The position numbers and the translations under genes were made by a program. From a virus (lineage: Duplodnaviria; Caudoviricetes), in IMG/VR virus record IMGVR_UViG_3300013368_000005, positions 32,001 to 96,000 of that record: a stretch of 64,000 bases of DNA; one strand, 5' to 3'. Below, one piece after another: positions 26,589 through 60,413 of the stretch (within the stretch, counting starts at the first letter, position 1; the number at the start of each line of letters is the position of its first letter). The notes under the pieces are model-generated. The model saw only the letters and a list, made by a program, of their open reading frames with translations, was not told where the DNA came from and did not search any database.

Positions 26589-27833
26589 ATGGCACAGAAA
26601 AGACAAATAAGAACAGCAAGAGCTGTTACTAAAAAAGAAGATATTGATTATTTAGTTAATATAAAAGAAGAAGATATTACAACAAGTTTTATAATGGATA
26701 CATTTGCAGAATTTAATGGTAAAACTAGATTTGATCCATATGATACTATAACTATACCTCCTGGTTCTTATGGTCCAGAAGGAAAAAAGAATAAAAATTC
26801 ATTTGACACAACAGTAGGATTATGGATTTTTAATAAATATTTTATAGAGAAAGATTTATTTAATTTATTTTTACCAAGTGGATATATAAATAAGTCTATA
26901 GATAAGAAAACTTTTGGAATGATAAATACCAAATTATCCAGGGCGATATTAGAAGATGATATAGAATTAGAAGCATCAAAAAGATATTTAATGAAAACAC
27001 AAAAGAGTATGCCTTATGTTAGTATATTATCTCCTAGCCATACATTAAGTTTATTATTAAGTCCTAAAGAAATAGAAAAAAAGAAAAAAGAACTAGCTAA
27101 AAAATATGCTAAAGAGTTAGAAGCAGGAGACGAAATAGTAGCGGAAAAAATAGAAACAGAGTTATTAGAATTTGCTAAGAGTTTTCTGGCAGGAGACCCT
27201 TCTATGGATTTCTATAATTCAGGAGCCAGAGGCTCATTTGGAAATAACTTTAAAAATATGTATGTAATGAAGGGTGCAATCAAAGATCCAGATCCAAACA
27301 AAGGTTATAATATCGCAATGTCAAATTATATGAATGGCATATCTAGAGAAGAATATGCAACATTCGCAAACTCATTAGCAGCTGGTCCTTATGCTAGAGG
27401 AAAGAAAACAGAAATCGGTGGTTATATGGAAAAACTATATTTATCGGCATTTCAACATATCACTTTAGACAAGCCTGGTTCAGATTGTCATACTGATCAA
27501 TATATAGAAGTTTTATTAGAAGGAAAATCAATAGATGATTATATGTATTCATATGTAATAGACGGAAATAATCTTGTAGAATTAACTTCTAAGACTATAG
27601 ATAAATATAAAGGAAAGAAAGTTAAATTGAGATTCTCTTCTTTATGTAAGAGTAAAACAGGTATTTGTAATAAATGTGCTGGGACTTTATTATATAGATT
27701 AGGATTAAAAAATGCAGGTATGACTTTACCAATAATACCTTCTACCCTAAAGAATTTAAGTATGAAAAGTTTCCATGATAGTAGCGTAGTAACAATAGAA
27801 ATGGACCCTATGAAGGCATTTGGTTTAAAATAA
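26589..27833 (+). CDS. Phage RNA polymerase beta'-like subunit, C-terminal part (bridge helix, zinc site, trigger loop)
   Basis: SGARGS; SNYMNGI...KKTEIGGYMEK (cf. SNFREGL...KTANSGYLTR); DC...RFSSLC...GICNKCAG (zinc site); NLSMKSFH (cf. QLTMRTFH). Confidence 0.92.
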   Translation: MAQKRQIRTARAVTKKEDIDYLVNIKEEDITTSFIMDTFAEFNGKTRFDPYDTITIPPGSYGPEGKKNKNSFDTTVGLWIFNKYFIEKDLFNLFLPSGYINKSIDKKTFGMINTKLSRAILEDDIELEASKRYLMKTQKSMPYVSILSPSHTLSLLLSPKEIEKKKKELAKKYAKELEAGDEIVAEKIETELLEFAKSFLAGDPSMDFYNSGARGSFGNNFKNMYVMKGAIKDPDPNKGYNIAMSNYMNGISREEYATFANSLAAGPYARGKKTEIGGYMEKLYLSAFQHITLDKPGSDCHTDQYIEVLLEGKSIDDYMYSYVIDGNNLVELTSKTIDKYKGKKVKLRFSSLCKSKTGICNKCAGTLLYRLGLKNAGMTLPIIPSTLKNLSMKSFHDSSVVTIEMDPMKAFGLK

Positions 27834-39634: not shown

Positions 39635-41197
39635 ATGGGAAATTTTAACGTAAATTTAAGTTATCCTTTTTCGCCTGATTTCTATTATGAGACAAGGCTA
39701 AAAAGAATAAATCTTGATGAGAGAAGAAAACAATCAATTATTAGTGGAAAGGGGTTTATAATCTCCAATCCTCAAAGTACTTTAAAGAAAGATATGAAAG
39801 ATCCAAATAGTATATTTTCATCTAAATTTGGACAAACATTACAAGATGTAAATCCATTTGGTGATAGATACAAATGTGAATGTGGATATTTAACGTCAAG
39901 AATAAATCATGACATAGAGTGTCCGATATGTCATAAAAAAGTAAAATATATAGATGATGATTTTGGAATATTTGGTTGGATTGTATTGAAAGATCCATAT
40001 TATATAATACATCCAAACTTATATAAATCTATGGAATATTTAATTGGTGGAGGAAAATTTGATGGTAAGAATGGAAGTAGACTTGATAATATTCTTAAAC
40101 CAGTAGAACAAAAGGACGAAGATGGTCATACAATAGGAATAGGAGGATTACCAAACGGTAAACAAATTCCAGCAGACCAACCTTTTTATGGTATTGGTAT
40201 TTTAGAATTTAAAGAAAGATTCGAAGAAATAATGGATTACTATTTAAAGAAAAATCCTAATAAGAAAGATTATTATGATGATATAATGGAAAATAAAGAT
40301 AATATATTTACTCAATCTGTCCCAGTATATACAACACATTTAAGACCTTTTAAAATAGATGGAGTGTCGTTTCATTTTGAAGGTGTAAATGCAATTTATA
40401 ATATGATTTCTAAGCTTTCATCTTATATAAATAAAGATGATCTAAAAATGTTTAGAAAAAAGAAAACAAAAAATCAACTTCTATACGATATGCATATAAA
40501 ATATTTAAAATTATATGGAGAGTTAGAAGAAGTATTAGCAGGAAAGAAAGGTACTTTAAGATCAGTGTTTGGTGGAAGATATAACTTTGCATCAAGAAAT
40601 GTTATAGTACCAAATGAAACATTAAGAATAGATGAGGTAACAATGCCATATGCAGCTATGGTAGAACTGTTACAACAAACAATAATAAATATACTTCATA
40701 AGACATATAATATAACTTATAATGATGCTTATAATATTTGGGCTAAAGCTCAATTGGTAAGGGATGATAGAGTATGGCAAATAATAGAAGGTTTAATCAA
40801 GGATTCAGGTAGGGGTATACCTGTAATTATTAATAGAAACCCAACGATTCAGTATGGTTCACTACTACAAATGTATGTAGTCGGCATAACTGACACATAT
40901 ACATTAGCGTTACCATTACAGATACTACCATTAATAGCTGGAGACTTTGATGGTGACGTATTAAACGTATTATATATTATTAATGAATCATTTAAACAAC
41001 AAGCAATAAAAATACTAAATCCAAGAAATGCAATGTATATTTCAAGGAATGATGGTAAGATGAATCCAGATGTAAATCATACTAAGGATTTATTAATAAA
41101 TGCAAATGCATTAATAAGATTGGGTAGAACAAACTATACACAAGAACAAGTTGATAGAATTAGACAATTACAGAATATGCTAAATTTAGCATCATAA
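39635..41197 (+). CDS. Phage RNA polymerase beta'-like subunit, N-terminal part with catalytic DFDGD
   Basis: SIFSSKFG, YKCECG...CPIC (zinc), GKKGTLR...GGRYNFASRNVI, IINRNPTI and IAGDFDGD. Confidence 0.94.
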   Translation: MGNFNVNLSYPFSPDFYYETRLKRINLDERRKQSIISGKGFIISNPQSTLKKDMKDPNSIFSSKFGQTLQDVNPFGDRYKCECGYLTSRINHDIECPICHKKVKYIDDDFGIFGWIVLKDPYYIIHPNLYKSMEYLIGGGKFDGKNGSRLDNILKPVEQKDEDGHTIGIGGLPNGKQIPADQPFYGIGILEFKERFEEIMDYYLKKNPNKKDYYDDIMENKDNIFTQSVPVYTTHLRPFKIDGVSFHFEGVNAIYNMISKLSSYINKDDLKMFRKKKTKNQLLYDMHIKYLKLYGELEEVLAGKKGTLRSVFGGRYNFASRNVIVPNETLRIDEVTMPYAAMVELLQQTIINILHKTYNITYNDAYNIWAKAQLVRDDRVWQIIEGLIKDSGRGIPVIINRNPTIQYGSLLQMYVVGITDTYTLALPLQILPLIAGDFDGDVLNVLYIINESFKQQAIKILNPRNAMYISRNDGKMNPDVNHTKDLLINANALIRLGRTNYTQEQVDRIRQLQNMLNLAS

Positions 41198-48822: not shown

Positions 48823-49194
48823 TTATTGTTTATCTTCTAATTCTTTTTTCATTATATCATCTATAAGTGGTTTCTTAGCTCGATATACTTTTATCCAAAA
48901 TGCTAAATTTTTTATTTTACCTAAAACTTCAAATCCTAACATACCTCCAACAAAGCATGGAAGTATAAATAGTTTCATAGATATTTTAGAGAGTATAAAT
49001 TCACTTAACGAAAATAAAATTATAGATGATACTGTTGTCGATATCAATATTCTACTTATTTTTACCTTAGTGTCCTTTTCAGTAAAAGTGTTATAGGTGT
49101 CTTTAATTATAGCCCCCAATAAACTAAAAACAAATATAAATAAAAAATCCATTATACTTGAAATAAGTGCTACTTTGTCAATTACCATCCCCAT
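48823..49194 (-). CDS. Holin-like membrane protein (3 TM, charged C-tail)
   Basis: FSLLGAII / ISTTVSSIILF / CFVGGMLGFE; late transcription unit. Confidence 0.6.
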   Translation of the reverse strand: MGMVIDKVALISSIMDFLFIFVFSLLGAIIKDTYNTFTEKDTKVKISRILISTTVSSIILFSLSEFILSKISMKLFILPCFVGGMLGFEVLGKIKNLAFWIKVYRAKKPLIDDIMKKELEDKQ

Positions 49195-49220
49195 TTCACA
49201 TCACTCATTTCTTTACTAAA

Positions 49221-50201
49221 TTAATCTTGTTTTGGAATTTTATTTTGTAAACACCCTGAGCCTATAATCACAAATATACCTATTATTGTAGATTGTGCCA
49301 TAGCTGCAGCGTTTCTTTTCTGATTTTCTATTATATCATTACGCAAATCATCAATTTGATGCTTGTATTCATATATATAAGACAAATAAGGTTGTAATGC
49401 ATCTAATATATTAATTCTTTGAATAATAATAATCTTAAAATTATCTATTTTGTACCCTAAGCTGTTTAAATCTTTAGTTCCAAATATATCTCCTTCTTTA
49501 GTCAAATATAGAGGTACTAATAATTCATAAGAGCTTAGAGCTGTTATTCCTTCTTCTTTATAGATTTTAAGTAGTTCCTTTATATTCATAGAACTAATAC
49601 ACTTATGTGGATTATTAGATCCAATTGGCTCCCAGAATATAAACTCATTTTCAAGATTGGTATTTTTTATTGCATTTATAGCTTGTTCGGTTAAAGCTGT
49701 ATTATGGACTACACTTTTCATTTTACTCCAACTCATATATTGAGTTTCTATATCTTGGTTTGCATCAAATTGGTATCCAATAGATCTATTCCAGAGAATG
49801 TTATCCATTGAAGCAACAAAAACTTTATTTGACATAGAATCTTTATTTATATAGGTATCGGATAACATCTCATCAAATATTTTTGTTAATTCACTATCAG
49901 TACTAGGGTTACTGATATCATACTCTAGATCATTTAACTCTCCTGCATATCGATTTAACATTGTTTGCTGAATATCATTTGTTCTAATTGTTAATGAGTC
50001 TTCAGCTCTTCTTATATTTTCAAGTAGAATTGTAGAGATATAATTCTCCATATCACATTCTACAGATTCTATTATATTATTATATTTAATTTTCATTATT
50101 TCATATTCATTATATTGCTTATATCCAAATACAGTCACACATAGCAATATTGAAAGTGTTGACATAGCTAAGATTTTCGATATGACATTTTTTTTCATCA
50201 T
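49221..50201 (-). CDS. Membrane protein with N- and C-terminal TMs and a large extracytoplasmic domain
   Basis: Hydrophobic ends; late promoter at 50222-50233; co-transcribed with the holin-like gene. Confidence 0.6.
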   Translation of the reverse strand: MMKKNVISKILAMSTLSILLCVTVFGYKQYNEYEIMKIKYNNIIESVECDMENYISTILLENIRRAEDSLTIRTNDIQQTMLNRYAGELNDLEYDISNPSTDSELTKIFDEMLSDTYINKDSMSNKVFVASMDNILWNRSIGYQFDANQDIETQYMSWSKMKSVVHNTALTEQAINAIKNTNLENEFIFWEPIGSNNPHKCISSMNIKELLKIYKEEGITALSSYELLVPLYLTKEGDIFGTKDLNSLGYKIDNFKIIIIQRINILDALQPYLSYIYEYKHQIDDLRNDIIENQKRNAAAMAQSTIIGIFVIIGSGCLQNKIPKQD

Positions 50202-50279
50202 AATTCGTCACCTCCTTTTATTATATTTATGTTATACAAAAAATGGAAGCAGGAATATATATTCCTGCTTCTAATATTA

Positions 50280-51221
50280 TTAACCAAATCTATTTTCTGA
50301 ATTACATAAACATCTTCCGTTGCAATTACATGTGCCATTTCCTCTGGTGACGCATGAACATAGTTCATAAACATCACATGTACATCCAGATGTTGGGGTT
50401 CTACTCACACACATACAATCTGTATTACATGTACATGCTTCAATTGTTGTTCTACTAACACAGTTACATACATTATCTGCATTACAAGTACAATCTGGAG
50501 AAAATGTTCTATCAACACATAAACAACCATGTTGTATACATATTGTCTCTGCTGTTCTGTCAACACAGGTACAACCAGTATCCGAATTACTAGTGCATTG
50601 AGTGCCTGTTCTAGTGACACATAAGCAATTAGATGGACAATCACCGCCAGTTACTTCCCCTGAAGTTCTTGAGTTACAATCACAATTTGTTATTCCTACT
50701 CTCGATACGCATGTACATAAAATATTAGAATCACATGTGTCAACTGCTGTTCTTGATACACATGAACAAGTATTATCATTACAACTACAAGAATATCCTG
50801 TTCTAGCAACACATGAACATGAGACATTCTCAATACATTCTAATTCTGATGTTCTAGCCACACAACTACATATATTACTTGAACAAATATCGCCTGATGT
50901 TCTTGCAACACAATTACAAGATGTATGAGCATCACAGGAGAGTTCTGAAGTTCTAGTAACGCAATTACATGTAGTATCTACATGTGAATCACATGTTAAT
51001 GGCATTATATTATCCATAATATCCTCTATATCACCTATAGAGACAGTATTATCTTTTAATGCAAAATTATCTATATGAGCTATACAAGTTCCAAGGTTTC
51101 TTTGATTATTCATATCATCTAATAAATCTTTTAATTGACCTAATGAATTATATTGAGGAGGATTTGTATAACCCTTTTTTATTTGTAATAAGTTTTTTAA
51201 TCTTATTAAACTCTTATTCAT
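50280..51221 (-). CDS. Cys-rich repeat protein with about 13 CxCxxR[T/V/G] units; candidate radical SAM substrate
   Basis: ~75 aa non-repetitive N-region, then CNCVTRT, CNCVART, CSCVART x2, CSCVSRT, CTCVSRV, CDCNSRT, CLCVTRT, CTCVDRT, CLCVDRT, CNCVSRT, CMCVSRT, CSCVTRG. Confidence 0.85.
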   Translation of the reverse strand: MNKSLIRLKNLLQIKKGYTNPPQYNSLGQLKDLLDDMNNQRNLGTCIAHIDNFALKDNTVSIGDIEDIMDNIMPLTCDSHVDTTCNCVTRTSELSCDAHTSCNCVARTSGDICSSNICSCVARTSELECIENVSCSCVARTGYSCSCNDNTCSCVSRTAVDTCDSNILCTCVSRVGITNCDCNSRTSGEVTGGDCPSNCLCVTRTGTQCTSNSDTGCTCVDRTAETICIQHGCLCVDRTFSPDCTCNADNVCNCVSRTTIEACTCNTDCMCVSRTPTSGCTCDVYELCSCVTRGNGTCNCNGRCLCNSENRFG

Positions 51222-51237
51222 AATTTATCCTCCTATA

Positions 51238-52011
51238 TTATTTATATAAAATAGTCCATCTAAAGCCACCAACAAAACTTCCTGAATTACCTACAAATAT
51301 ATTTGTAGCATCAGCTCTAATCCATGTTTCGCCTAAATATCCTTGAGGATTTTCAATAGGCATAATCATTATATTTGTTGGTGTAAATGATAATCCATGG
51401 GCTATAGTAACTTCATTATTACTTCCAGCAAAATTTGCTATACCACTTTTATCTGTTATTTTTTGACTTAATTTTTCTGCTATTGAAGTAGCAAAATTAG
51501 GATCTTCTCCTAATGCTTTAGCTAATTCAGATAATGTATTTAATGTCTCAGGCGAAGAATCAATTAAATTAGTAATTGCTGTTTCTACCCCTTCAGTTAT
51601 TTTAGCATCTGTTTCCGTTTTATTATAGTAATCAACTAAAACGTTTGCTATTATCTCTTCTACTGTTAATTGAGGTTTGTTTAGATTAGGTACACCTTTA
51701 AATGCAATAAAATTAAATACTGTATCTATACCTGTAGTCCCCCAATCATTTCCTAAAGACATTATAGCTGTACCTTCTGGATTTATTGTGTATGACGTTT
51801 CAGGAATATATTTACCAGCAATAAATACAAATAATAAATCATAATTAATATTAAAATTTTCTATACCAATATTTACACTAGGTGCAGTTCCTGTAATAGT
51901 AATATTATTTTTTCTATATCCTATAATACCAGTAGCAGCAGCTTTTTCAAATTGCATAAATAAATCATTGCTTATTTCGTGACCTGTTACTTTTCCTCCT
52001 ATACTAGCCAT
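51238..52011 (-). CDS. Tail fibre-like protein
   Basis: LIDSSPETLNTLSELAKALGEDPNFATSI is a common tail-fibre segment; YYNKTETD repeat; C-terminal VTIAHGLSFTP; late promoter at 52038-52049. Confidence 0.8.
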   Translation of the reverse strand: MASIGGKVTGHEISNDLFMQFEKAAATGIIGYRKNNITITGTAPSVNIGIENFNINYDLLFVFIAGKYIPETSYTINPEGTAIMSLGNDWGTTGIDTVFNFIAFKGVPNLNKPQLTVEEIIANVLVDYYNKTETDAKITEGVETAITNLIDSSPETLNTLSELAKALGEDPNFATSIAEKLSQKITDKSGIANFAGSNNEVTIAHGLSFTPTNIMIMPIENPQGYLGETWIRADATNIFVGNSGSFVGGFRWTILYK

Positions 52012-52096: not shown

Positions 52097-53005
52097 TCAT
52101 ATTTGTAATAGTTGTTGATAATAATCATATACTTTTTTTCTCATATTATATACTATGATATTACTCTCTTCTAATGTATGTTGTGTTTTGATAATTTTAT
52201 AATTTAAGTCTTTAGATGATGTATAATCATTACTATTTCTACCATAAGTTTCGCCTATAACTTTACCAGATGAATCTTTAACATATGTTCTGATATCATT
52301 TTTAGGAGGTGGCACTAGAAAATCTGATATTTGTATACCTTCAAGTTTATTTGATATAATATCATGAGCTAAATCATGCATTTCAGACAGATATCTATTT
52401 AAATAATTTTCATCTACAGACATTGTAGATTCTATAATACCTATATTCATTCTACACCTTATGCCTTTTTCATGTAGTTCATGAATACTTTCTCTTAAAA
52501 AAGCTATATTATACGGATGAGTAACAATATGCATATTGTAATTAATACCATTTCTATTTAACTTATCTATATTTTCTATTACTTTATCAAATGTATTCTC
52601 ATGTGTATCCTTAAATACTCTAAGCTGATTGGCAATTTTATTACCGTCTAAACTTATAGAAAATACTATATTTTTATTCTCTTTAAGAAATTTAATGTGT
52701 TCATCTTCTAATATAGTGCCATTAGTTGTAATATATATTGTATTTACTATATTATTAAATGAAGTGTTTCTTTCGGTAAGTTCTATCCATTCATATGCAC
52801 TTTTAATATTATCAAAAGCTAACATTGGTTCTCCACCTAGAAATTCTATATTAAATCTTTTATTATGACCAGCGAAATTGTATATATTATTTATTAAGTC
52901 TTCGATTTCTTCTTTACAATATATAGATTCTTTATCTTTTTCGTAACAATATTTACAATTACAATTACATTCCTTGGTTACATGAATGACATAAGTTTCT
53001 ATCAT
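52097..53005 (-). CDS. Radical SAM protein without a SPASM domain
   Basis: CNCNCKYC (CxxxCxxC), FLGGEP, ITTNGT and SISLDG; no C-terminal Cys cluster. Confidence 0.92.
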   Translation of the reverse strand: MIETYVIHVTKECNCNCKYCYEKDKESIYCKEEIEDLINNIYNFAGHNKRFNIEFLGGEPMLAFDNIKSAYEWIELTERNTSFNNIVNTIYITTNGTILEDEHIKFLKENKNIVFSISLDGNKIANQLRVFKDTHENTFDKVIENIDKLNRNGINYNMHIVTHPYNIAFLRESIHELHEKGIRCRMNIGIIESTMSVDENYLNRYLSEMHDLAHDIISNKLEGIQISDFLVPPPKNDIRTYVKDSSGKVIGETYGRNSNDYTSSKDLNYKIIKTQHTLEESNIIVYNMRKKVYDYYQQLLQI

Positions 53006-53018
53006 AATTATTCACCAC

Positions 53019-54557
53019 CTAGAGATTTTTTATTATTTGCGTAAGAGCTTCAGGTATCAATTCTGTTACACTAGTATACATATCTTCAATTTTATTATTT
53101 AAGAATTGCTTTTCTAAAATTAATCCAGTATATTCTTCGATAGTTAAACCTTCTTCTTCAGCACGTTCTAATATTTTATTATAAGTAGATTTAGCTAATT
53201 TTATTGTAACAATATTATCTGATTTAATCTCAACTTTATTAGCTGATATCATATCTGCTTTGAGTGTAAACTTATTATTAGTCTCTTCGCTATCTATTAA
53301 ATTAAATTGTGTACCTCTTGAATCACATAAACATGCTGGGTTGTCTGGATTATTTCCTATGGTTGAACTTATTTTATTATCTTTTCTATCTAATACTCCC
53401 AATTTATAATACTCCTCTACTTCTTTTTTTATATATGATTGTATTTCTTTTTCTATTTTACTCATTTGACATCTATACCCTCTAGATACAGATAATATAG
53501 AACCATTTTCACAAAGATTTTCTGCTATACATCTATAACAATGATAGCAGTCACAATCTGGATCATCTATTTTACAACTTAAATCATTATTATCATACTC
53601 TACGAATAATAATCTTTTTTGATCGTCTATACCATCAAATATATTACCTATTATATATTGTCTTTCTGGATCATTAAAATATATATGATGACAAGGTGAA
53701 ATATCTCCATTGGCAGTAATAGTAATAAAACTATTACCAGCTCCACAAGGTTTATTCGAAAAATCACAAGCATTAGATAAACTTCTGTCTAATGGTGCAT
53801 AATTTCTTATTTCATTTAAATTACCTTCCTTTTCTACTCTATTTAATATATAGTCTGCTATTTTGCCTAATTGTTCTTTATACATATTAACATCTTTTTG
53901 AGTCCAATCATTACTATGAATAGGCATAAACCATATATGTTTTAAACCCCAATCTTCTCTAAAGAATTTATAACTTTCAAATAAATATTTCATAGAAAAA
54001 TCATTTAAACATCCATGTATGCTTAAATTATCAGGTTTATTTTTGAAAAGATTTTTCCATTTAGGGATATTCTTTTCTACTATTTGAAAACTACCTTTTT
54101 TATTATGTGTTATTCTAAAAGCATCTTGAACTTTTTGAATACCATCTACAGATAATTGAACAGTAAGATTAACGTTATATATTCCTTTACTAAGTATTCT
54201 TTCTAATTCTGTTGTCAGTATGGTACCATTTGTTATCATATTCATAGACACGGGTATCTTTGTTATACTACTTATAGCACTAGCTTCATCGATTATAAAT
54301 TCCAATATCTCTGGCTCTAATGTTGGCTCTCCTCCAAATAATAATATATTTACCCGTTGCTCTCCAAATCCATTATCTATATTTTTTTTCGCATTGTCAA
54401 ATAAGAATTTAATACCTTGATTAGCAACTTCATAAGACATTTTATTCTTATTATGTTTTTCGAAACAATATGAGCAAGCTAGATTACAATTTTCTGTAAC
54501 TAGAAAACTTGCTGCAGTGGGTTGTAAAATCTTTTTAATGTCGATTATTTTTATCAT
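53019..54557 (-). CDS. Radical SAM/SPASM peptide maturase-like protein with a C-terminal extension
   Basis: CNLACSYC, FGGEP, ITNGT, LSVDG; SPASM CGAG...GDISPC...C..CDCYHCYRC...C; late promoter at 54577-54588. Confidence 0.93.
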   Translation of the reverse strand: MIKIIDIKKILQPTAASFLVTENCNLACSYCFEKHNKNKMSYEVANQGIKFLFDNAKKNIDNGFGEQRVNILLFGGEPTLEPEILEFIIDEASAISSITKIPVSMNMITNGTILTTELERILSKGIYNVNLTVQLSVDGIQKVQDAFRITHNKKGSFQIVEKNIPKWKNLFKNKPDNLSIHGCLNDFSMKYLFESYKFFREDWGLKHIWFMPIHSNDWTQKDVNMYKEQLGKIADYILNRVEKEGNLNEIRNYAPLDRSLSNACDFSNKPCGAGNSFITITANGDISPCHHIYFNDPERQYIIGNIFDGIDDQKRLLFVEYDNNDLSCKIDDPDCDCYHCYRCIAENLCENGSILSVSRGYRCQMSKIEKEIQSYIKKEVEEYYKLGVLDRKDNKISSTIGNNPDNPACLCDSRGTQFNLIDSEETNNKFTLKADMISANKVEIKSDNIVTIKLAKSTYNKILERAEEEGLTIEEYTGLILEKQFLNNKIEDMYTSVTELIPEALTQIIKNL

Positions 54558-54645
54558 AAATATCTCCTCCCTTGATTATAATAATGTTTGTCCCATGATA
54601 TAATAATAAAAATTACAAGATACCAATTAAGGTATCTTGTAATGA

Positions 54646-55494
54646 TTAGCAAGTAGCAACCCAACTTGTTCCATTATAATATTTCATAATACCATTTTTC
54701 CAACCTAAATTATAAGGTTGAGGTACATTTGATGTTACCCATGAACTCCCATTCCATACATGACAACCAGATCTATAAGTTGCATCCCAGCCTTCTTCTG
54801 CTTGTAAATCCGATTCATAACTTCCATTTAATGAAGACACTGCAAATTGAATACCATCATAAGCACCAGCAGCACTATTAACAGGAAAGTCATATCGATT
54901 ACTTACAACAGTACTTTGATAACTCCAATTGGCATTCCATGTTCCAGTAGAATGATTATAATATCTAGCATATACTTTATATCCAGTTGCTCCAGATGCT
55001 CCAGTAAAGGTAACTCTCATTTCTTCTCCTTTATTGAATAATCCTGAAACAGATACGTTTGATGGTTTGTTTGGAATTGTTTGAATTTGATCTAATGTAA
55101 CAGTTTTTCCTACACTCATCGTTCCTATCCAAACACCTGTATAAGTAATTTCTATAGCAAATGTTGCTGCTAGATCTACTGAACGAGATCCATCTGAATT
55201 ATGAGGCACTGTAGCTGTTCTAGTAACTAATACATTTTGCCAAATTTGACTATCATCATTTCTATCTGGAACAGATTTACTAAAATTTTGCGTACTTCCA
55301 TTTATTGTGGTTGTTCCATTTTTTACTAATCCCCATGTACTTACAGAACTACTTTCCATTATTACTGAAATTGTTACAGAGGATGAATTAGTAGCTTGAT
55401 TTGGAGTTGATGACCATTGAATACCTAATCTAACATTATATCTCTCTAAAGCAGAACCACCATAATACCCACTCCAAAATATTCCACTAGCCAT
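54646..55494 (-). CDS. Tail or receptor-binding-like protein (DUF859-like N-domain plus FN3-like domain)
   Basis: NQATNSSSVT...VPHNSDGSRSV...LDQI; PNKPSNVSV...GATGYKVY; WNGSSW / YNGTSW. Confidence 0.7.
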   Translation of the reverse strand: MASGIFWSGYYGGSALERYNVRLGIQWSSTPNQATNSSSVTISVIMESSSVSTWGLVKNGTTTINGSTQNFSKSVPDRNDDSQIWQNVLVTRTATVPHNSDGSRSVDLAATFAIEITYTGVWIGTMSVGKTVTLDQIQTIPNKPSNVSVSGLFNKGEEMRVTFTGASGATGYKVYARYYNHSTGTWNANWSYQSTVVSNRYDFPVNSAAGAYDGIQFAVSSLNGSYESDLQAEEGWDATYRSGCHVWNGSSWVTSNVPQPYNLGWKNGIMKYYNGTSWVATC

Positions 55495-57178: not shown

Positions 57179-57904
57179 TTATCTTATAGAATTTAATAGT
57201 TTTATCAAAAATGTCATATCTGTCCGTTTAACTATTTCTGATGTACTCTTCTTTGTAGGTAAAGTTCCTCTTATAAATTGAGTTAATGGTATCATTGCAT
57301 CTATAAATTCATTATAATAATTTATATGCCAGATACAGGTGGAATCTATACCTACAAAAGAAAATGCTGTTAAATACTTATATATCCTAAATTCATTTAT
57401 TTTTTGTCTAAGTGAGATTACATCGTTTATAGTAATGTGTGTTTGTTCACCTATCTTCTTTTCTTGCCATGTAAAATTAGCTGGTCTAGGTTTTTGATCC
57501 TGTTGAATATTACACTGACATGCTATTTGACACATATCTTGACAATAGCTTTGACAAGTAGTTAAACATGCTTTTTCACATGTAAATTGACATAACATTT
57601 GACAATTTTCTTGGCAATTTAATTCACAACCAGTTTGACAAGCCGTTTGACAAACAGTTTGGCAAGTTTGACATCCTTGTCGTTCACATTGGCATACTGA
57701 CAAACATGTTGCTAAGCATGCTTCATTTACTAATTGACAAGCATTTTCACATTGATTGCATTCTGCCTCTATGTCCATACACATACATGTATTCATACAA
57801 GCATCTGAACAACTGCTATTTGCTAAAGTTACGTTATTAGAATCATTCAAGAAGTCAGGAATAGTTATTTCAGTACCTTTTAAAAAATCGCTCATTTCGA
57901 TCAC
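57179..57904 (-). CDS. CxxxC-repeat protein fused to a C-terminal globular domain; candidate radical SAM substrate; probable ATG at 57895
   Basis: ~30 aa leader, then CSDACMNTC...CQTVCQTACQTGCELNCQENCQMLCQFTCEKACLTTCQSYCQDMCQIACQC, then a ~100 aa RPANFTW... domain. Its GGAGGTG SD overlaps the rSAM stop codon. Confidence 0.85.
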   Translation of the reverse strand: MIEMSDFLKGTEITIPDFLNDSNNVTLANSSCSDACMNTCMCMDIEAECNQCENACQLVNEACLATCLSVCQCERQGCQTCQTVCQTACQTGCELNCQENCQMLCQFTCEKACLTTCQSYCQDMCQIACQCNIQQDQKPRPANFTWQEKKIGEQTHITINDVISLRQKINEFRIYKYLTAFSFVGIDSTCIWHINYYNEFIDAMIPLTQFIRGTLPTKKSTSEIVKRTDMTFLIKLLNSIR

Positions 57905-59157
57905 CTCCTGTTAAATTGAGTTTTAAATAATTCATTTGACTCACCTGCTAACGTATTCATTATATTTATCGATGTATCTAAGCATATATTATAAAATTTA
58001 CATAATATTTCTGGAACTATTGTTAAATCGCCACAGGAAAAATAATTGTTTATAGAGCAATACCCATCACATATATTATGGAGTCTGCATGTCTTACACC
58101 TTTTTGAATCAGAACACCTGACTTTTTTTACATCAAACGAGTTTATAATTTCCCATCTTTTATCATTATAGATTTCAGTGAATAAATTACCTATTATAAA
58201 TTTATCTCCATTTTCTCTGTTTCCTACCATTTCTTGGCAAGAATATATTTCTCCATCGGGACCTATTGATGCAAATCTATTAGAACCTAATCCGCATCTA
58301 CCATATGCAGGTGCATCTGTAGCATTTCTAAACGATGCAGTTTCATTAAATCTATTAATCTTTTTTATATTACCAAATGCATAATCAAATTGCGAAATAG
58401 ATATATCTCTACCTTCTCTTATTAATTCTATATACCAATTAGCAACTTCATTGATCGCTATTACTAGATCATTAACCTCTTGATTAGTCCATTTAGTAAA
58501 TACATTAACAATAAAAAATATATTATTATATCCTTTTTCTATAGCAAATTTACAATTATGCAATAATTGTTTACAATTATCATGATCTAATGTCATTCTA
58601 AAAGTCATATTAGGATTTAATTTTAGAGCTTTAGGGATATTATTTATTATTAAATCAAATGATGATTTTCCATTATGAAGAGGTCTATTTAAATCTTGTG
58701 TAGGTTTATCTCCATCAATACTGATCATAATTCCAATATTATTATCTTTTATAAATTGTAATCTTTCCTCATTCAATAATGTACCATTGGTCGTCATAGA
58801 TAATTGAAAATTATTATTACATTGCTTTCTAATATATTTAGTCAATGGTACAATTATTTCATCCCATTTGAGCATGGGTTCTCCACCAAAGAAATTGATA
58901 CTAGGAATGTCCCCTTGTATTTTAGAATTTTCTATAATAAAATCTACAGCTCTTTTTGCAGTATCATAAGACATTTCTTTAGCATATTGATCTATAAAAC
59001 AATACTTACATTTAAGATTACATTTTTGTGTAACATTGAGAAATATGGAAGTTATTAATGGTAAGTCTCCATCTTTCCATATTTGCTCTACTGTTCTAAA
59101 ATTATTATTTTCGCATTGTTGATTTACACATTGTTCACAATTCATATTAATTACCAC
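57901..59157 (-). CDS. Radical SAM/SPASM peptide maturase-like protein; probable ATG at 59145
   Basis: CNLKCKYC, FFGGEP, MTTNGT, ISIDG; SPASM CGLG...GEIYSC...CKTCRLHNICDGYC...C. Confidence 0.94.
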   Translation of the reverse strand: MVINMNCEQCVNQQCENNNFRTVEQIWKDGDLPLITSIFLNVTQKCNLKCKYCFIDQYAKEMSYDTAKRAVDFIIENSKIQGDIPSINFFGGEPMLKWDEIIVPLTKYIRKQCNNNFQLSMTTNGTLLNEERLQFIKDNNIGIMISIDGDKPTQDLNRPLHNGKSSFDLIINNIPKALKLNPNMTFRMTLDHDNCKQLLHNCKFAIEKGYNNIFFIVNVFTKWTNQEVNDLVIAINEVANWYIELIREGRDISISQFDYAFGNIKKINRFNETASFRNATDAPAYGRCGLGSNRFASIGPDGEIYSCQEMVGNRENGDKFIIGNLFTEIYNDKRWEIINSFDVKKVRCSDSKRCKTCRLHNICDGYCSINNYFSCGDLTIVPEILCKFYNICLDTSINIMNTLAGESNELFKTQFNRR

Positions 59158-59207: not shown

Positions 59208-60413
59208 TTATGAGAAATAAGCACCACCAAGTGTAATCCATCCAGAAGTTGTTTTTAATTTTATTACTTTATTTATACTATCTATCCATAACTCATTTTC
59301 TAAAGCATTAACAGGTTCCATAGTCTGAATGTAATATGTCGGTTTCTTAGATAGCATGGCATCAACTTCAGATTTTGTATATACCATATTAGTATCTACC
59401 TTAGAAGCTATCTGTTGGATTATAGTGCTTGACATATTGGGATTACTTGCCAACATATTAGAAAGTTGGGTCAAAGTAGCTAAATCTGTTGGGGAAGCAT
59501 TGATTATACTTTGAATTAAATCTTGAGTTTCTTGTTTTGTATAAGTATTATATCCATCAGCCTTTGATGTAAAGTAAGTTATTTGATCTTCGGTAACAAA
59601 TTTGTTATACATATCTTGAACTATACTCTCTGCTCTGATAGCTATATCATCAGCAAGTTTTATTGATGTTATAGATTTATCTGCATAATTTTTGGTTGTA
59701 AGAACTGTATTGGCGTTTAAATCATAAAATCTAGTATAAAAAAATATAAATAATGCAAACTCTCCTTGATTTAGGGCATCATTTGGGTTTTTAATTACTA
59801 AATCATCGCCTTTTACTTCATACTTTCCACTAAAATTATAGCCTCTAACAATTACAGCCATCTTATCTTGAGCCAAATCATAATTAGCTATCGGATATGG
59901 TATTTTTATTATCATCTGTTTATCTCTAGTAGCATGTACATAAATAGATTTACTAGCTGTAACTGCTATTTTATCAATAGCCTCTAAGGATTCTGCTAAT
60001 GTACTTCCATCTTCCATAATTACAACACTTGATAATGTTGTAGGAGCGATACTCTGCTCCATTGCAGCATAAAGTCCTTTTGTAGAATAAGTACTTTGTA
60101 AGAACTCATCTGAAGAGAATGCTGTTGTTAAGAAATCTTGTTGATCTTGTATAGTAAGCCATATTAAACCATCGTGCTTGTATACATTACCAGTTTCTTT
60201 AACATAATAAACTTTAGTCATTGACGTATATTGTAATAGGTCTTTATCAGCTTCGGTTGATAGATATATTATTTCATTTAATATTATACGTTGTTCATCT
60301 GATAGATCAAAAAAAGATTCTTTTGTATCAGTGCAATATATTATTTGATTTGTAAATAATCGAGTATTTCCTAACATATCTCGTATTATTTCTTTATAAC
60401 TAACAAATGACAT
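59208..60413 (-). CDS. Tail fibre protein, paralog of 55510-57090
   Basis: QIIYCTDTKE, APTTLSS, YTKQET / YTKSEVD, ASPTDLATLTQL, NELWID; late promoter at 60439-60450. Confidence 0.8.
   Translation of the reverse strand: MSFVSYKEIIRDMLGNTRLFTNQIIYCTDTKESFFDLSDEQRIILNEIIYLSTEADKDLLQYTSMTKVYYVKETGNVYKHDGLIWLTIQDQQDFLTTAFSSDEFLQSTYSTKGLYAAMEQSIAPTTLSSVVIMEDGSTLAESLEAIDKIAVTASKSIYVHATRDKQMIIKIPYPIANYDLAQDKMAVIVRGYNFSGKYEVKGDDLVIKNPNDALNQGEFALFIFFYTRFYDLNANTVLTTKNYADKSITSIKLADDIAIRAESIVQDMYNKFVTEDQITYFTSKADGYNTYTKQETQDLIQSIINASPTDLATLTQLSNMLASNPNMSSTIIQQIASKVDTNMVYTKSEVDAMLSKKPTYYIQTMEPVNALENELWIDSINKVIKLKTTSGWITLGGAYFS

Follow-up and report, generated by a model that had tools for sequence, protein, structure and literature searches.

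The gene at 50280-51221 of the DNA analysed encodes a 313-residue Cys-repeat protein, here called CysRep, which by sequence is a member of a real, unannotated family of about 30-40 clusters and which recurs beside genes for two radical SAM (rSAM) enzymes in phage tail modules. Sequence features and analogy with characterised enzymes make it somewhat likely that CysRep is the substrate of both enzymes, cross-linked by thioethers in the manner of ranthipeptides, and that the product is a tail appendage and not a secreted peptide. The DNA analysed, hereafter the window, is a stretch of 64,000 nucleotides from a 186.6-kb IMG/VR virus contig with 25% G+C. Separate ORFs at 26589-27833 and 39635-41197 of the window match phage RNA polymerase beta-subunit PHROGs (222 and 199 bits, respectively). 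A split multisubunit RNA polymerase is typical of phiKZ-like jumbo phages. The features on which the analysis draws are as follows.

50280-51221, minus strand: CysRep gene, 313 aa, start ATG at 51221, frame open
50982-51221, minus strand: N-terminal helical domain of CysRep (aa 1-80), from the AF2 model and homologs
50310-50981, minus strand: CxCxxRT array of CysRep (aa 81-304), from motif counts and 28 representative homologs
50283-50309, minus strand: C-terminal cap LCNSENRFG of CysRep (aa 305-313), from homologs with matching architecture
51229-51234, minus strand: AGGAGG ribosome-binding site of the CysRep gene, read directly in the sequence
51238-52011, minus strand: short tail-fibre protein, 257 aa, with PHROG matches
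about 51241-51465, minus strand: conserved end domain of about 65 aa (the knob) at the C-terminus of 51238-52011
52097-53005, minus strand: SPASM-less rSAM enzyme, 302 aa, CX3CX2C at aa 13-20
53019-54557, minus strand: rSAM/SPASM enzyme, 512 aa, CX3CX2C at aa 24-31
53310-53333, minus strand: substrate-like unit CLCDSRGT in the C-terminal extension of 53019-54557, followed by a helical tail
50246-50271, minus strand: terminator-like hairpin and T-run directly after the CysRep stop, 3' end of the apparent four-gene unit
54612-54643, minus strand: terminator-like hairpin upstream of the rSAM/SPASM gene, 5' boundary of the apparent unit

The Cys-repeat protein and its family

CysRep contains 47 Cys residues, 15% of its 313 residues. 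The first-pass annotation had described 13 repeat units, most of them preceded by a third Cys and separated by variable linkers, and had attributed their likeness to selection at the protein level. The strict pattern C.C[VND].R[TVG] does occur 13 times, together with one looser C.C..R unit (CNCNGRC), and shuffling residues 71-313 of CysRep 5000 times gives C.C..R matches by chance with a mean of 0.5 and a maximum of 4. A further Cys lies 5-8 residues upstream of most units, and the inter-unit linkers are 4-12 aa long and differ in sequence. Tandem Repeats Finder detects no DNA-level tandem repeat over the array, its sole find being an 11-nt stretch present 2.9 times. Between units, codons differ at 35% of identical-residue positions, a figure to be read with the caveat that the Cys and Arg codons (TGT and AGA) are uniform in CysRep because the genome has 25% G+C. 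The missing DNA repeat and the differing codons show that the units are conserved at the protein level and are not recent DNA duplicates, in agreement with the first-pass proposal.

CysRep matches no family in Pfam, none in NCBIfam (E<=0.01) and no PHROG, and a profile search against PDB sequences gives a best E of 0.68 to an unrelated protein, a chance match. A feature search of the ESM Atlas yields no usable match. Membership of a known disulfide or zinc repeat family, which would have spoken against the first-pass proposal, did not emerge: no known disulfide, zinc or metallothionein repeat family is matched in these Pfam, NCBIfam and PDB searches. Nor is any known RiPP-precursor family matched (Pfam, NCBIfam, PHROG and PDB sequences), consistent with the first-pass view that the motif lies outside the described precursor classes. 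In the AF2 model, built on the family alignment, residues 1-78 form three helices at a pLDDT of about 70-91, and the array stays below 50. The modelled helical N-terminal domain has no informative fold match (Foldseek against the PDB, best E 2.9; VIA-align, Z<=4.3). Within this domain, Cys-46, His-49, Cys-77 and His-80 form a C-x2-H...C-x2-H pattern.

An exhaustive HMMER search of 1.84 billion representatives has recovered 28 representative homologs at E<=1e-3, ten of them at E<1e-10, and a word-indexed search has added a few more relatives, all named 'hypothetical'. The 28 homologs have a common architecture, consisting of a helical N-terminal domain of about 80 aa, a variable array and a C-terminal CxCNGRCxCNxExRF cap. 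The N-terminal domain follows the pattern LSLxxLKxxLxxKxGY...LxDLKxLLxxM...R....C..H....SLGD, in which Arg-41 and Cys-46 are invariant and His-49 and Cys-77 are near-invariant. The 295 CxCxxR units found across 30 proteins have the consensus C-[DSTN]-C-[NVQD]-S-R-T and a period of mostly 8-11 or 16-19 residues. The residue at +6, which is position i+4 from the second Cys, is Thr in 63% of the units and Asp in 4%. The putative substrates of the family range from 170 to 715 aa with 8-25 units. Some paralogs contain runs of C-S-S-R-T or C-T-A-R-T, which reduces the core conserved throughout to C-x-x-R-T.

The Arg has been lost in a few distant members: the proteins at L022:4381-4869, L040:11268-11696 and L093:9211-9969 keep the N-terminal domain and the CxC spacing in CxCN... 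units, and an ortholog of the second rSAM enzyme was not found within the DNA fetched for these three loci. Seven CxCxxR-rich paralogs of 166-715 aa stand in a row at L010:1106-16894 (= L025; IMG/VR 3300035505_000313, 75.5 kb). Some of them have S/T/Y-rich linkers and no N-terminal domain. Two genes for family-2 glycosyltransferases come after the row, along with a third, weak rSAM gene and the enzyme pair, and the linkers could conceivably be glycosylated. A row of five rSAM-like genes is present in a jumbo phage locus (L023:10013-17562), together with two Cys-rich ORFs of 192 and 202 aa (31-35 Cys) that the family HMMs do not recognise; the locus may be a further variant of the Cys-repeat/rSAM theme. 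Longer fused forms (943-2690 aa) were not found, a null result that is weak evidence. The internal insert of protein P0005 was compared with the tail-protein domain of 54646-55494, and the candidate relationship was set aside, as the match spans just 40 aa at an E of 0.004 with no Pfam or PHROG match.

The enzyme pair and its linkage to the family

The SPASM region of 53019-54557 has nine further Cys residues between residues 264 and 363, and six Cys at 271-363 are invariant among six orthologs. The CX3CX2C motif is at residues 24-31, and so the enzyme has no room for an N-terminal recognition domain. Its best profile is PapB (NF047865; 202 bits, cut-off 340), and it also scores with the CXXX-repeat maturase TIGR04115 (128 bits, cut-off 350), QhpD (116 bits, cut-off 453), the SCIFF maturase TIGR03974 (112 bits, cut-off 425), TIGR03942 (81 bits, cut-off 349) and TIGR04119 (74 bits, cut-off 150). 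The nearest profiles, PapB, CXXX-repeat, QhpD and SCIFF, are those of thioether formers. The second enzyme, 52097-53005, matches Radical_SAM at 59.7 bits, and maturase profiles, including PapB NF047865 at 93.9 bits, align to its core alone. Only two Cys residues lie outside its cluster motif, so that it lacks an auxiliary cluster domain. Among the NCBIfam profiles, no curated maturase cut-off is reached by either enzyme, and so the reaction type is only an analogy.

The SPASM enzyme ends in an extension with the sequence GNNPNNPxCLCDxRG and an amphipathic helix (..IAMALKLIL.K.D..EK.Q..LLKK.L), which thus contains a unit resembling those of CysRep. The extension is kept in the window and in six further enzymes (L005:8573-9985, L011:1-747, L013:4569-5933, L014:9869-11338, L015:10019-11413 and L092:10001-11305). 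A related CLCNLR copy is present in the L009 enzyme, an extension-like segment is carried by the other rSAM protein (399 aa) in L003, and in L007 the extension is apparently a separate 87-aa ORF, a weak match with an E of 7.8e-4. The extension may dock the substrate, the N-terminal recognition domain being absent, or may be a pseudo-substrate. The ortholog at L017:9974-12298 has 774 aa, with a C-terminal addition of about 400 aa that has no family match, and its ORF overlaps the start of CysRep by 4 nt.

Two alignments, one of the SPASM enzyme and one of the fibre end domain, were searched against viral and genome contigs, and the fetched loci were scanned with the CysRep family HMMs and the window proteins. 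A family member adjoins an ortholog of the 512-aa enzyme (246-482 bits) in 19 distinct loci, namely the window, L003, L004 (at a contig edge), L005, L007, L009, L010 (= L025), L011, L013, L015, L016, L017, L021, L022, L040, L092, L093, L175 and L176. An ortholog of the 302-aa enzyme (150-265 bits) is present in at least 15 of the 19. Each rSAM match of about 240 bits or more adjoins a family member, with the exception of L014, where the contig ends, and none of the matches below about 230 bits has an adjacent family member. The common gene order is short knob-ended fibre, SPASM enzyme, CysRep and second rSAM enzyme. The co-occurrence with rSAM genes that the first-pass annotation had put forward as a check is therefore seen for both genes, for the second in most loci. 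Its proposal that the units are sites for one or both enzymes gains from this pairing with both enzyme genes, and modification of the units themselves would follow only by analogy.

The module is carried by jumbo phages of 108-235 kb, by a 75-kb phage and by prophages in metagenome-assembled genomes (MAGs) of Thermoanaerobacterales and Eubacteriales. In cultured phages, tblastn detects no ortholog of the SPASM enzyme, all matches being below 30% identity, and no match to CysRep, a result to which the low-complexity filter may contribute. Megablast of 15 kb of the window against cultured-phage records found nothing.

The window also contains, at 57179-59157, a second, different Cys-repeat protein (CQxxCQ-type, 241 aa) with its own rSAM/SPASM gene, and pairs homologous to it are present in L034 and L038. 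The gene for the CQxxCQ protein overlaps by 4 nt the end of the gene for this PapB-like enzyme (418 aa, 228 bits). The two SPASM enzymes of the window (512 aa and 418 aa) are only 32% identical.

Tail-fibre position and alternative explanations

The protein encoded at 51238-52011 has 22 PHROG matches, mostly to tail or tail-fibre families (best 5.6e-18), and tail and tail-fibre PHROG matches are also found at 54646-55494 and 59208-60413. The AGGAGG of the CysRep gene lies 4 nt past the stop codon of the fibre gene (51238-51240), and the CysRep gene is predicted to be translationally coupled to it. Terminator-like sites number 9 in the region, 2.2 being expected. Because hairpins flank the genes and the ribosome-binding site follows the fibre stop so closely, 53019-54557, 52097-53005, 51238-52011 and 50280-51221 look like one transcription unit, judged by these signals. 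The two genes after CysRep (48823-50201) encode a 326-aa protein with an N-terminal hydrophobic segment and a 123-aa hydrophobic protein, and their order is kept in L004:4426-5750. Both are without a family match and could be lysis or membrane proteins.

The module is also present in two PBSX-like prophages that are independent of each other, L005 (on a 510-kb MAG contig) and L092. Their genes run in the order sheath, tube, tape measure, LysM, YqbQ, sheath initiator, baseplate J and Mu gp48, after which only the knob protein (156 or 120 aa), SPASM enzyme, CysRep, second rSAM enzyme and a few small ORFs are present before the holin and amidase genes that end the interval. This interval, bounded by the Mu-gp48-like baseplate gene on one side and by the holin/amidase genes on the other, is the tail-fibre slot, and a knob protein of 156 or 120 aa is by itself very short for a fibre. 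The CysRep gene therefore occupies a tail-fibre position both in these prophages and in the window, where it is flanked by tail-fibre PHROG matches.

In 12 or more loci the knob forms the C-terminal end of the protein encoded before the module, and it is found also in about 10 loci without the module. The latter observation weakens the idea of the knob as a specific partner of CysRep and indicates that the two are not obligate partners. Complex prediction for the fibre knob with the N-terminal domain of CysRep gives a score of 0.09, a value that argues neither for nor against contact between them. A possible homology between the CysRep N-terminus and the 'LSLxELRDQI' proteins downstream of the knob in module-less phages was rejected at an hhalign probability of 1%. 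At L182:5776-9915 and L186:5761-9882, which have the knob without the module, a protein of about 500 aa with weak FGE-sulfatase or Rcc01698_C similarity is encoded downstream and is followed by a reverse transcriptase gene (RVT_1, 73-75 bits). This arrangement resembles a diversity-generating retroelement that targets a receptor-binding protein and, by position only, fits a host-recognition role of the slot.

It is unlikely that CysRep is instead a giant multi-core RiPP precursor carried as phage cargo, in which the N-terminal domain would be the leader and the modified array, whole or cut after Arg, would be released at lysis as a bacteriocin, signal or anti-defence molecule. A leader-like domain followed by repeated cores, an rSAM/SPASM enzyme in the RiPP-maturase clade and an Arg in each unit that could be a cleavage site are what such a precursor would have, and a gene that closes the tail module, with genes for small membrane proteins of possible lysis function nearby, would suit release, but no peptidase, ABC exporter or immunity gene is seen in the window. 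Neither protease nor exporter genes are detected among the window neighbours with Pfam, NCBIfam and PHROG, and the Pfam-annotated neighbours of related loci contain none of these genes except one PhageMetallopep gene in L007/L008. Some loci have more than one paralog, with two fibre-CysRep pairs in L015, two paralogs in L004 and the seven in a row in L010, and several lack the N-terminal domain, a poor fit to a leader-dependent precursor. Members of up to 715 aa, a gene that fills the fibre slot of prophages without another plausible fibre, and its coupling to the fibre gene in one apparent transcription unit likewise argue against a released product. A tail structural protein is therefore favoured over the RiPP precursor suggested by the first-pass annotation, whose image of a poly-macrocyclic rod is retained in part, a rod being closer to a tail part than to a released peptide.

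A metal-binding or disulfide-stabilised Cys-rich fibre or polymer, holding Zn, Fe, Fe-S or Cys pairs while the rSAM enzymes act elsewhere or on few sites only, is similarly improbable. The CxC motifs and the 15% Cys content resemble those of metallothionein-like proteins, and the Cys-46, His-49, Cys-77 and His-80 pattern would suit a metal site, but this explanation leaves the strict co-inheritance with two rSAM enzymes unexplained, neither the invariant Arg nor the conserved Thr is a usual metal ligand, and the Pfam, NCBIfam and PDB searches match no metal- or disulfide-repeat family. A strict anaerobe, moreover, is unlikely to have stable disulfides in its cytoplasm. The usual place for a fibre chaperone gene is just downstream of the fibre gene, and the CysRep gene lies in that place and is apparently coupled to translation of the fibre gene, as expected of a non-virion assembly factor, chaperone or scaffold for the adjacent fibre. 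Such a role is nonetheless very unlikely, since the repeat number is highly variable and the linkers are hypervariable, up to seven paralogs occur in one phage, two dedicated rSAM enzymes are not expected for a chaperone, and other phages have knob-bearing fibres without CysRep.

Proposed modification and comparison with known systems

The thioether-stapled tail appendage, which is the preferred explanation, leads to the following model. CysRep would be the dedicated substrate of the two co-inherited rSAM enzymes, and the SPASM enzyme would most likely form intramolecular thioether staples in each unit, binding a unit Cys at an auxiliary cluster and joining its sulfur to a carbon of a nearby residue. 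By analogy with CteB and PapB, the best candidate for the link is from the sulfur of the second Cys to a carbon of the i+4 residue, usually Thr, and the invariant Arg would be the recognition residue of each unit. The SPASM-less enzyme would add a second radical modification. The product would not be exported and, in phages of strict anaerobes, would form a fibrous, redox- and protease-resistant component of the tail-fibre apparatus, with the conserved ends of CysRep serving as anchors and the variable linkers exposed. Against this explanation, AF2 gives no confident structure for the array and CysRep has no PHROG match to a known fibre family; against the thioether analogy, PapB-type acceptors are acidic and the conserved i+4 residue here is Thr.

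In its wider form, the model holds that phages and tail-like prophages of strictly anaerobic Firmicutes build part of the host-recognition fibre from a poly-Cys repeat protein that is thioether-stapled unit by unit by two phage-encoded rSAM enzymes, which is plausible but short of probable. rSAM/SPASM thioether chemistry is so far known from small secreted peptides and one enzyme subunit. If the model is true, RiPP chemistry would be used for a virion structural element as an oxygen-independent substitute for disulfides. Virions would thereby gain a new class of post-translational modification, and phages of anaerobes a new route to fibres that are both stable and variable. The short motif C-x-x-R-T would then be enzyme-recognised and, with the enzyme pair, would be available for peptide stapling. 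The module comprises four genes, and its repeat of 8-17 residues is within reach of chemical synthesis. The CxCxxRT motif and the enzyme pair have not yet been described, as a literature search found no paper on either this motif or rSAM-modified phage tail proteins.

Cys-Thr and Cys-Asp thioethers formed by such rSAM/SPASM enzymes are documented (PMC8172795; PMC12373016). PapA has six CXXXD units modified by the rSAM/SPASM enzyme PapB (PMC12373016), CteB/Tte1186 forms a thioether between Cys-32 and Thr-37 (S-C-gamma), and QhpD forms several Cys thioethers in a protein subunit that stays within a larger assembly (PMC8172795). The PapB/PapA system (freyrasin, NF047865) resembles the present one in pairing an rSAM/SPASM enzyme with a repeated short Cys motif and a conserved i+4 residue, and PapB is the best profile for both SPASM enzymes of the window, at 202 and 228 bits, below the 340-bit cut-off. 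The acceptor position here is Thr and not Asp or Glu, however, and C-X3-D/E units are absent (Asp in 4% of 295). The CysRep units have an invariant Arg and a second Cys, and the substrate is 170-715 aa long with 8-25 units. In addition, the enzyme starts at the rSAM core and has a substrate-like C-terminal extension, a second, SPASM-less rSAM enzyme is present in most loci, and the context is a phage tail.

The CXXX-repeat system (maturases TIGR04115 and TIGR04119, target TIGR04114) likewise places a long Cys-repeat target beside an rSAM/SPASM maturase. The scores of 127.7 and 74.1 bits are under the cut-offs of 350 and 150, and the target profiles are unmatched, as the present motif is CxCxxRT with variable linkers and not a Cys at each fourth position; CysRep is also distinct in its N-terminal domain and its C-terminal cap. 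SCIFF/thermocellin of Clostridia (CteB/CteA, Tte1186; TIGR03974) is the nearest precedent for a Cys...Thr unit. The SCIFF precursor has about 45 aa and six Cys without repeats, whereas CysRep has 313 aa, and the N-terminal recognition domain of the SCIFF maturase is absent here, the alignment beginning at profile position 100 with 111.6 bits, below the cut-off of 425.

QhpD/QhpC, the maturase and gamma subunit of quinohemoprotein amine dehydrogenase, is alike in that the modified protein is kept in an assembly (116 bits, below the 453-bit cut-off), but QhpC belongs to a periplasmic enzyme complex and has acidic acceptors and no repeats. For the anaerobic sulfatase-maturating SPASM enzyme, the recognised feature is a short motif in which a Cys is combined with an essential Arg. 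This motif, C-x-[PA]-x-R or, with Ser allowed for Cys, C/S-x-P/A-x-R (TIGR03942), resembles the CysRep unit in combining these two residues, but in CysRep the Cys-Arg spacing is 3 or 5 instead of 4, position +2 is neither Pro nor Ala, and the score of 80.8 bits is below the cut-off of 349. By analogy, therefore, the CysRep system appears to resemble the ranthipeptide and CXXX-repeat systems functionally, and it differs from them in its motif, the size of its substrate, its second, SPASM-less rSAM enzyme and its place in a tail module.
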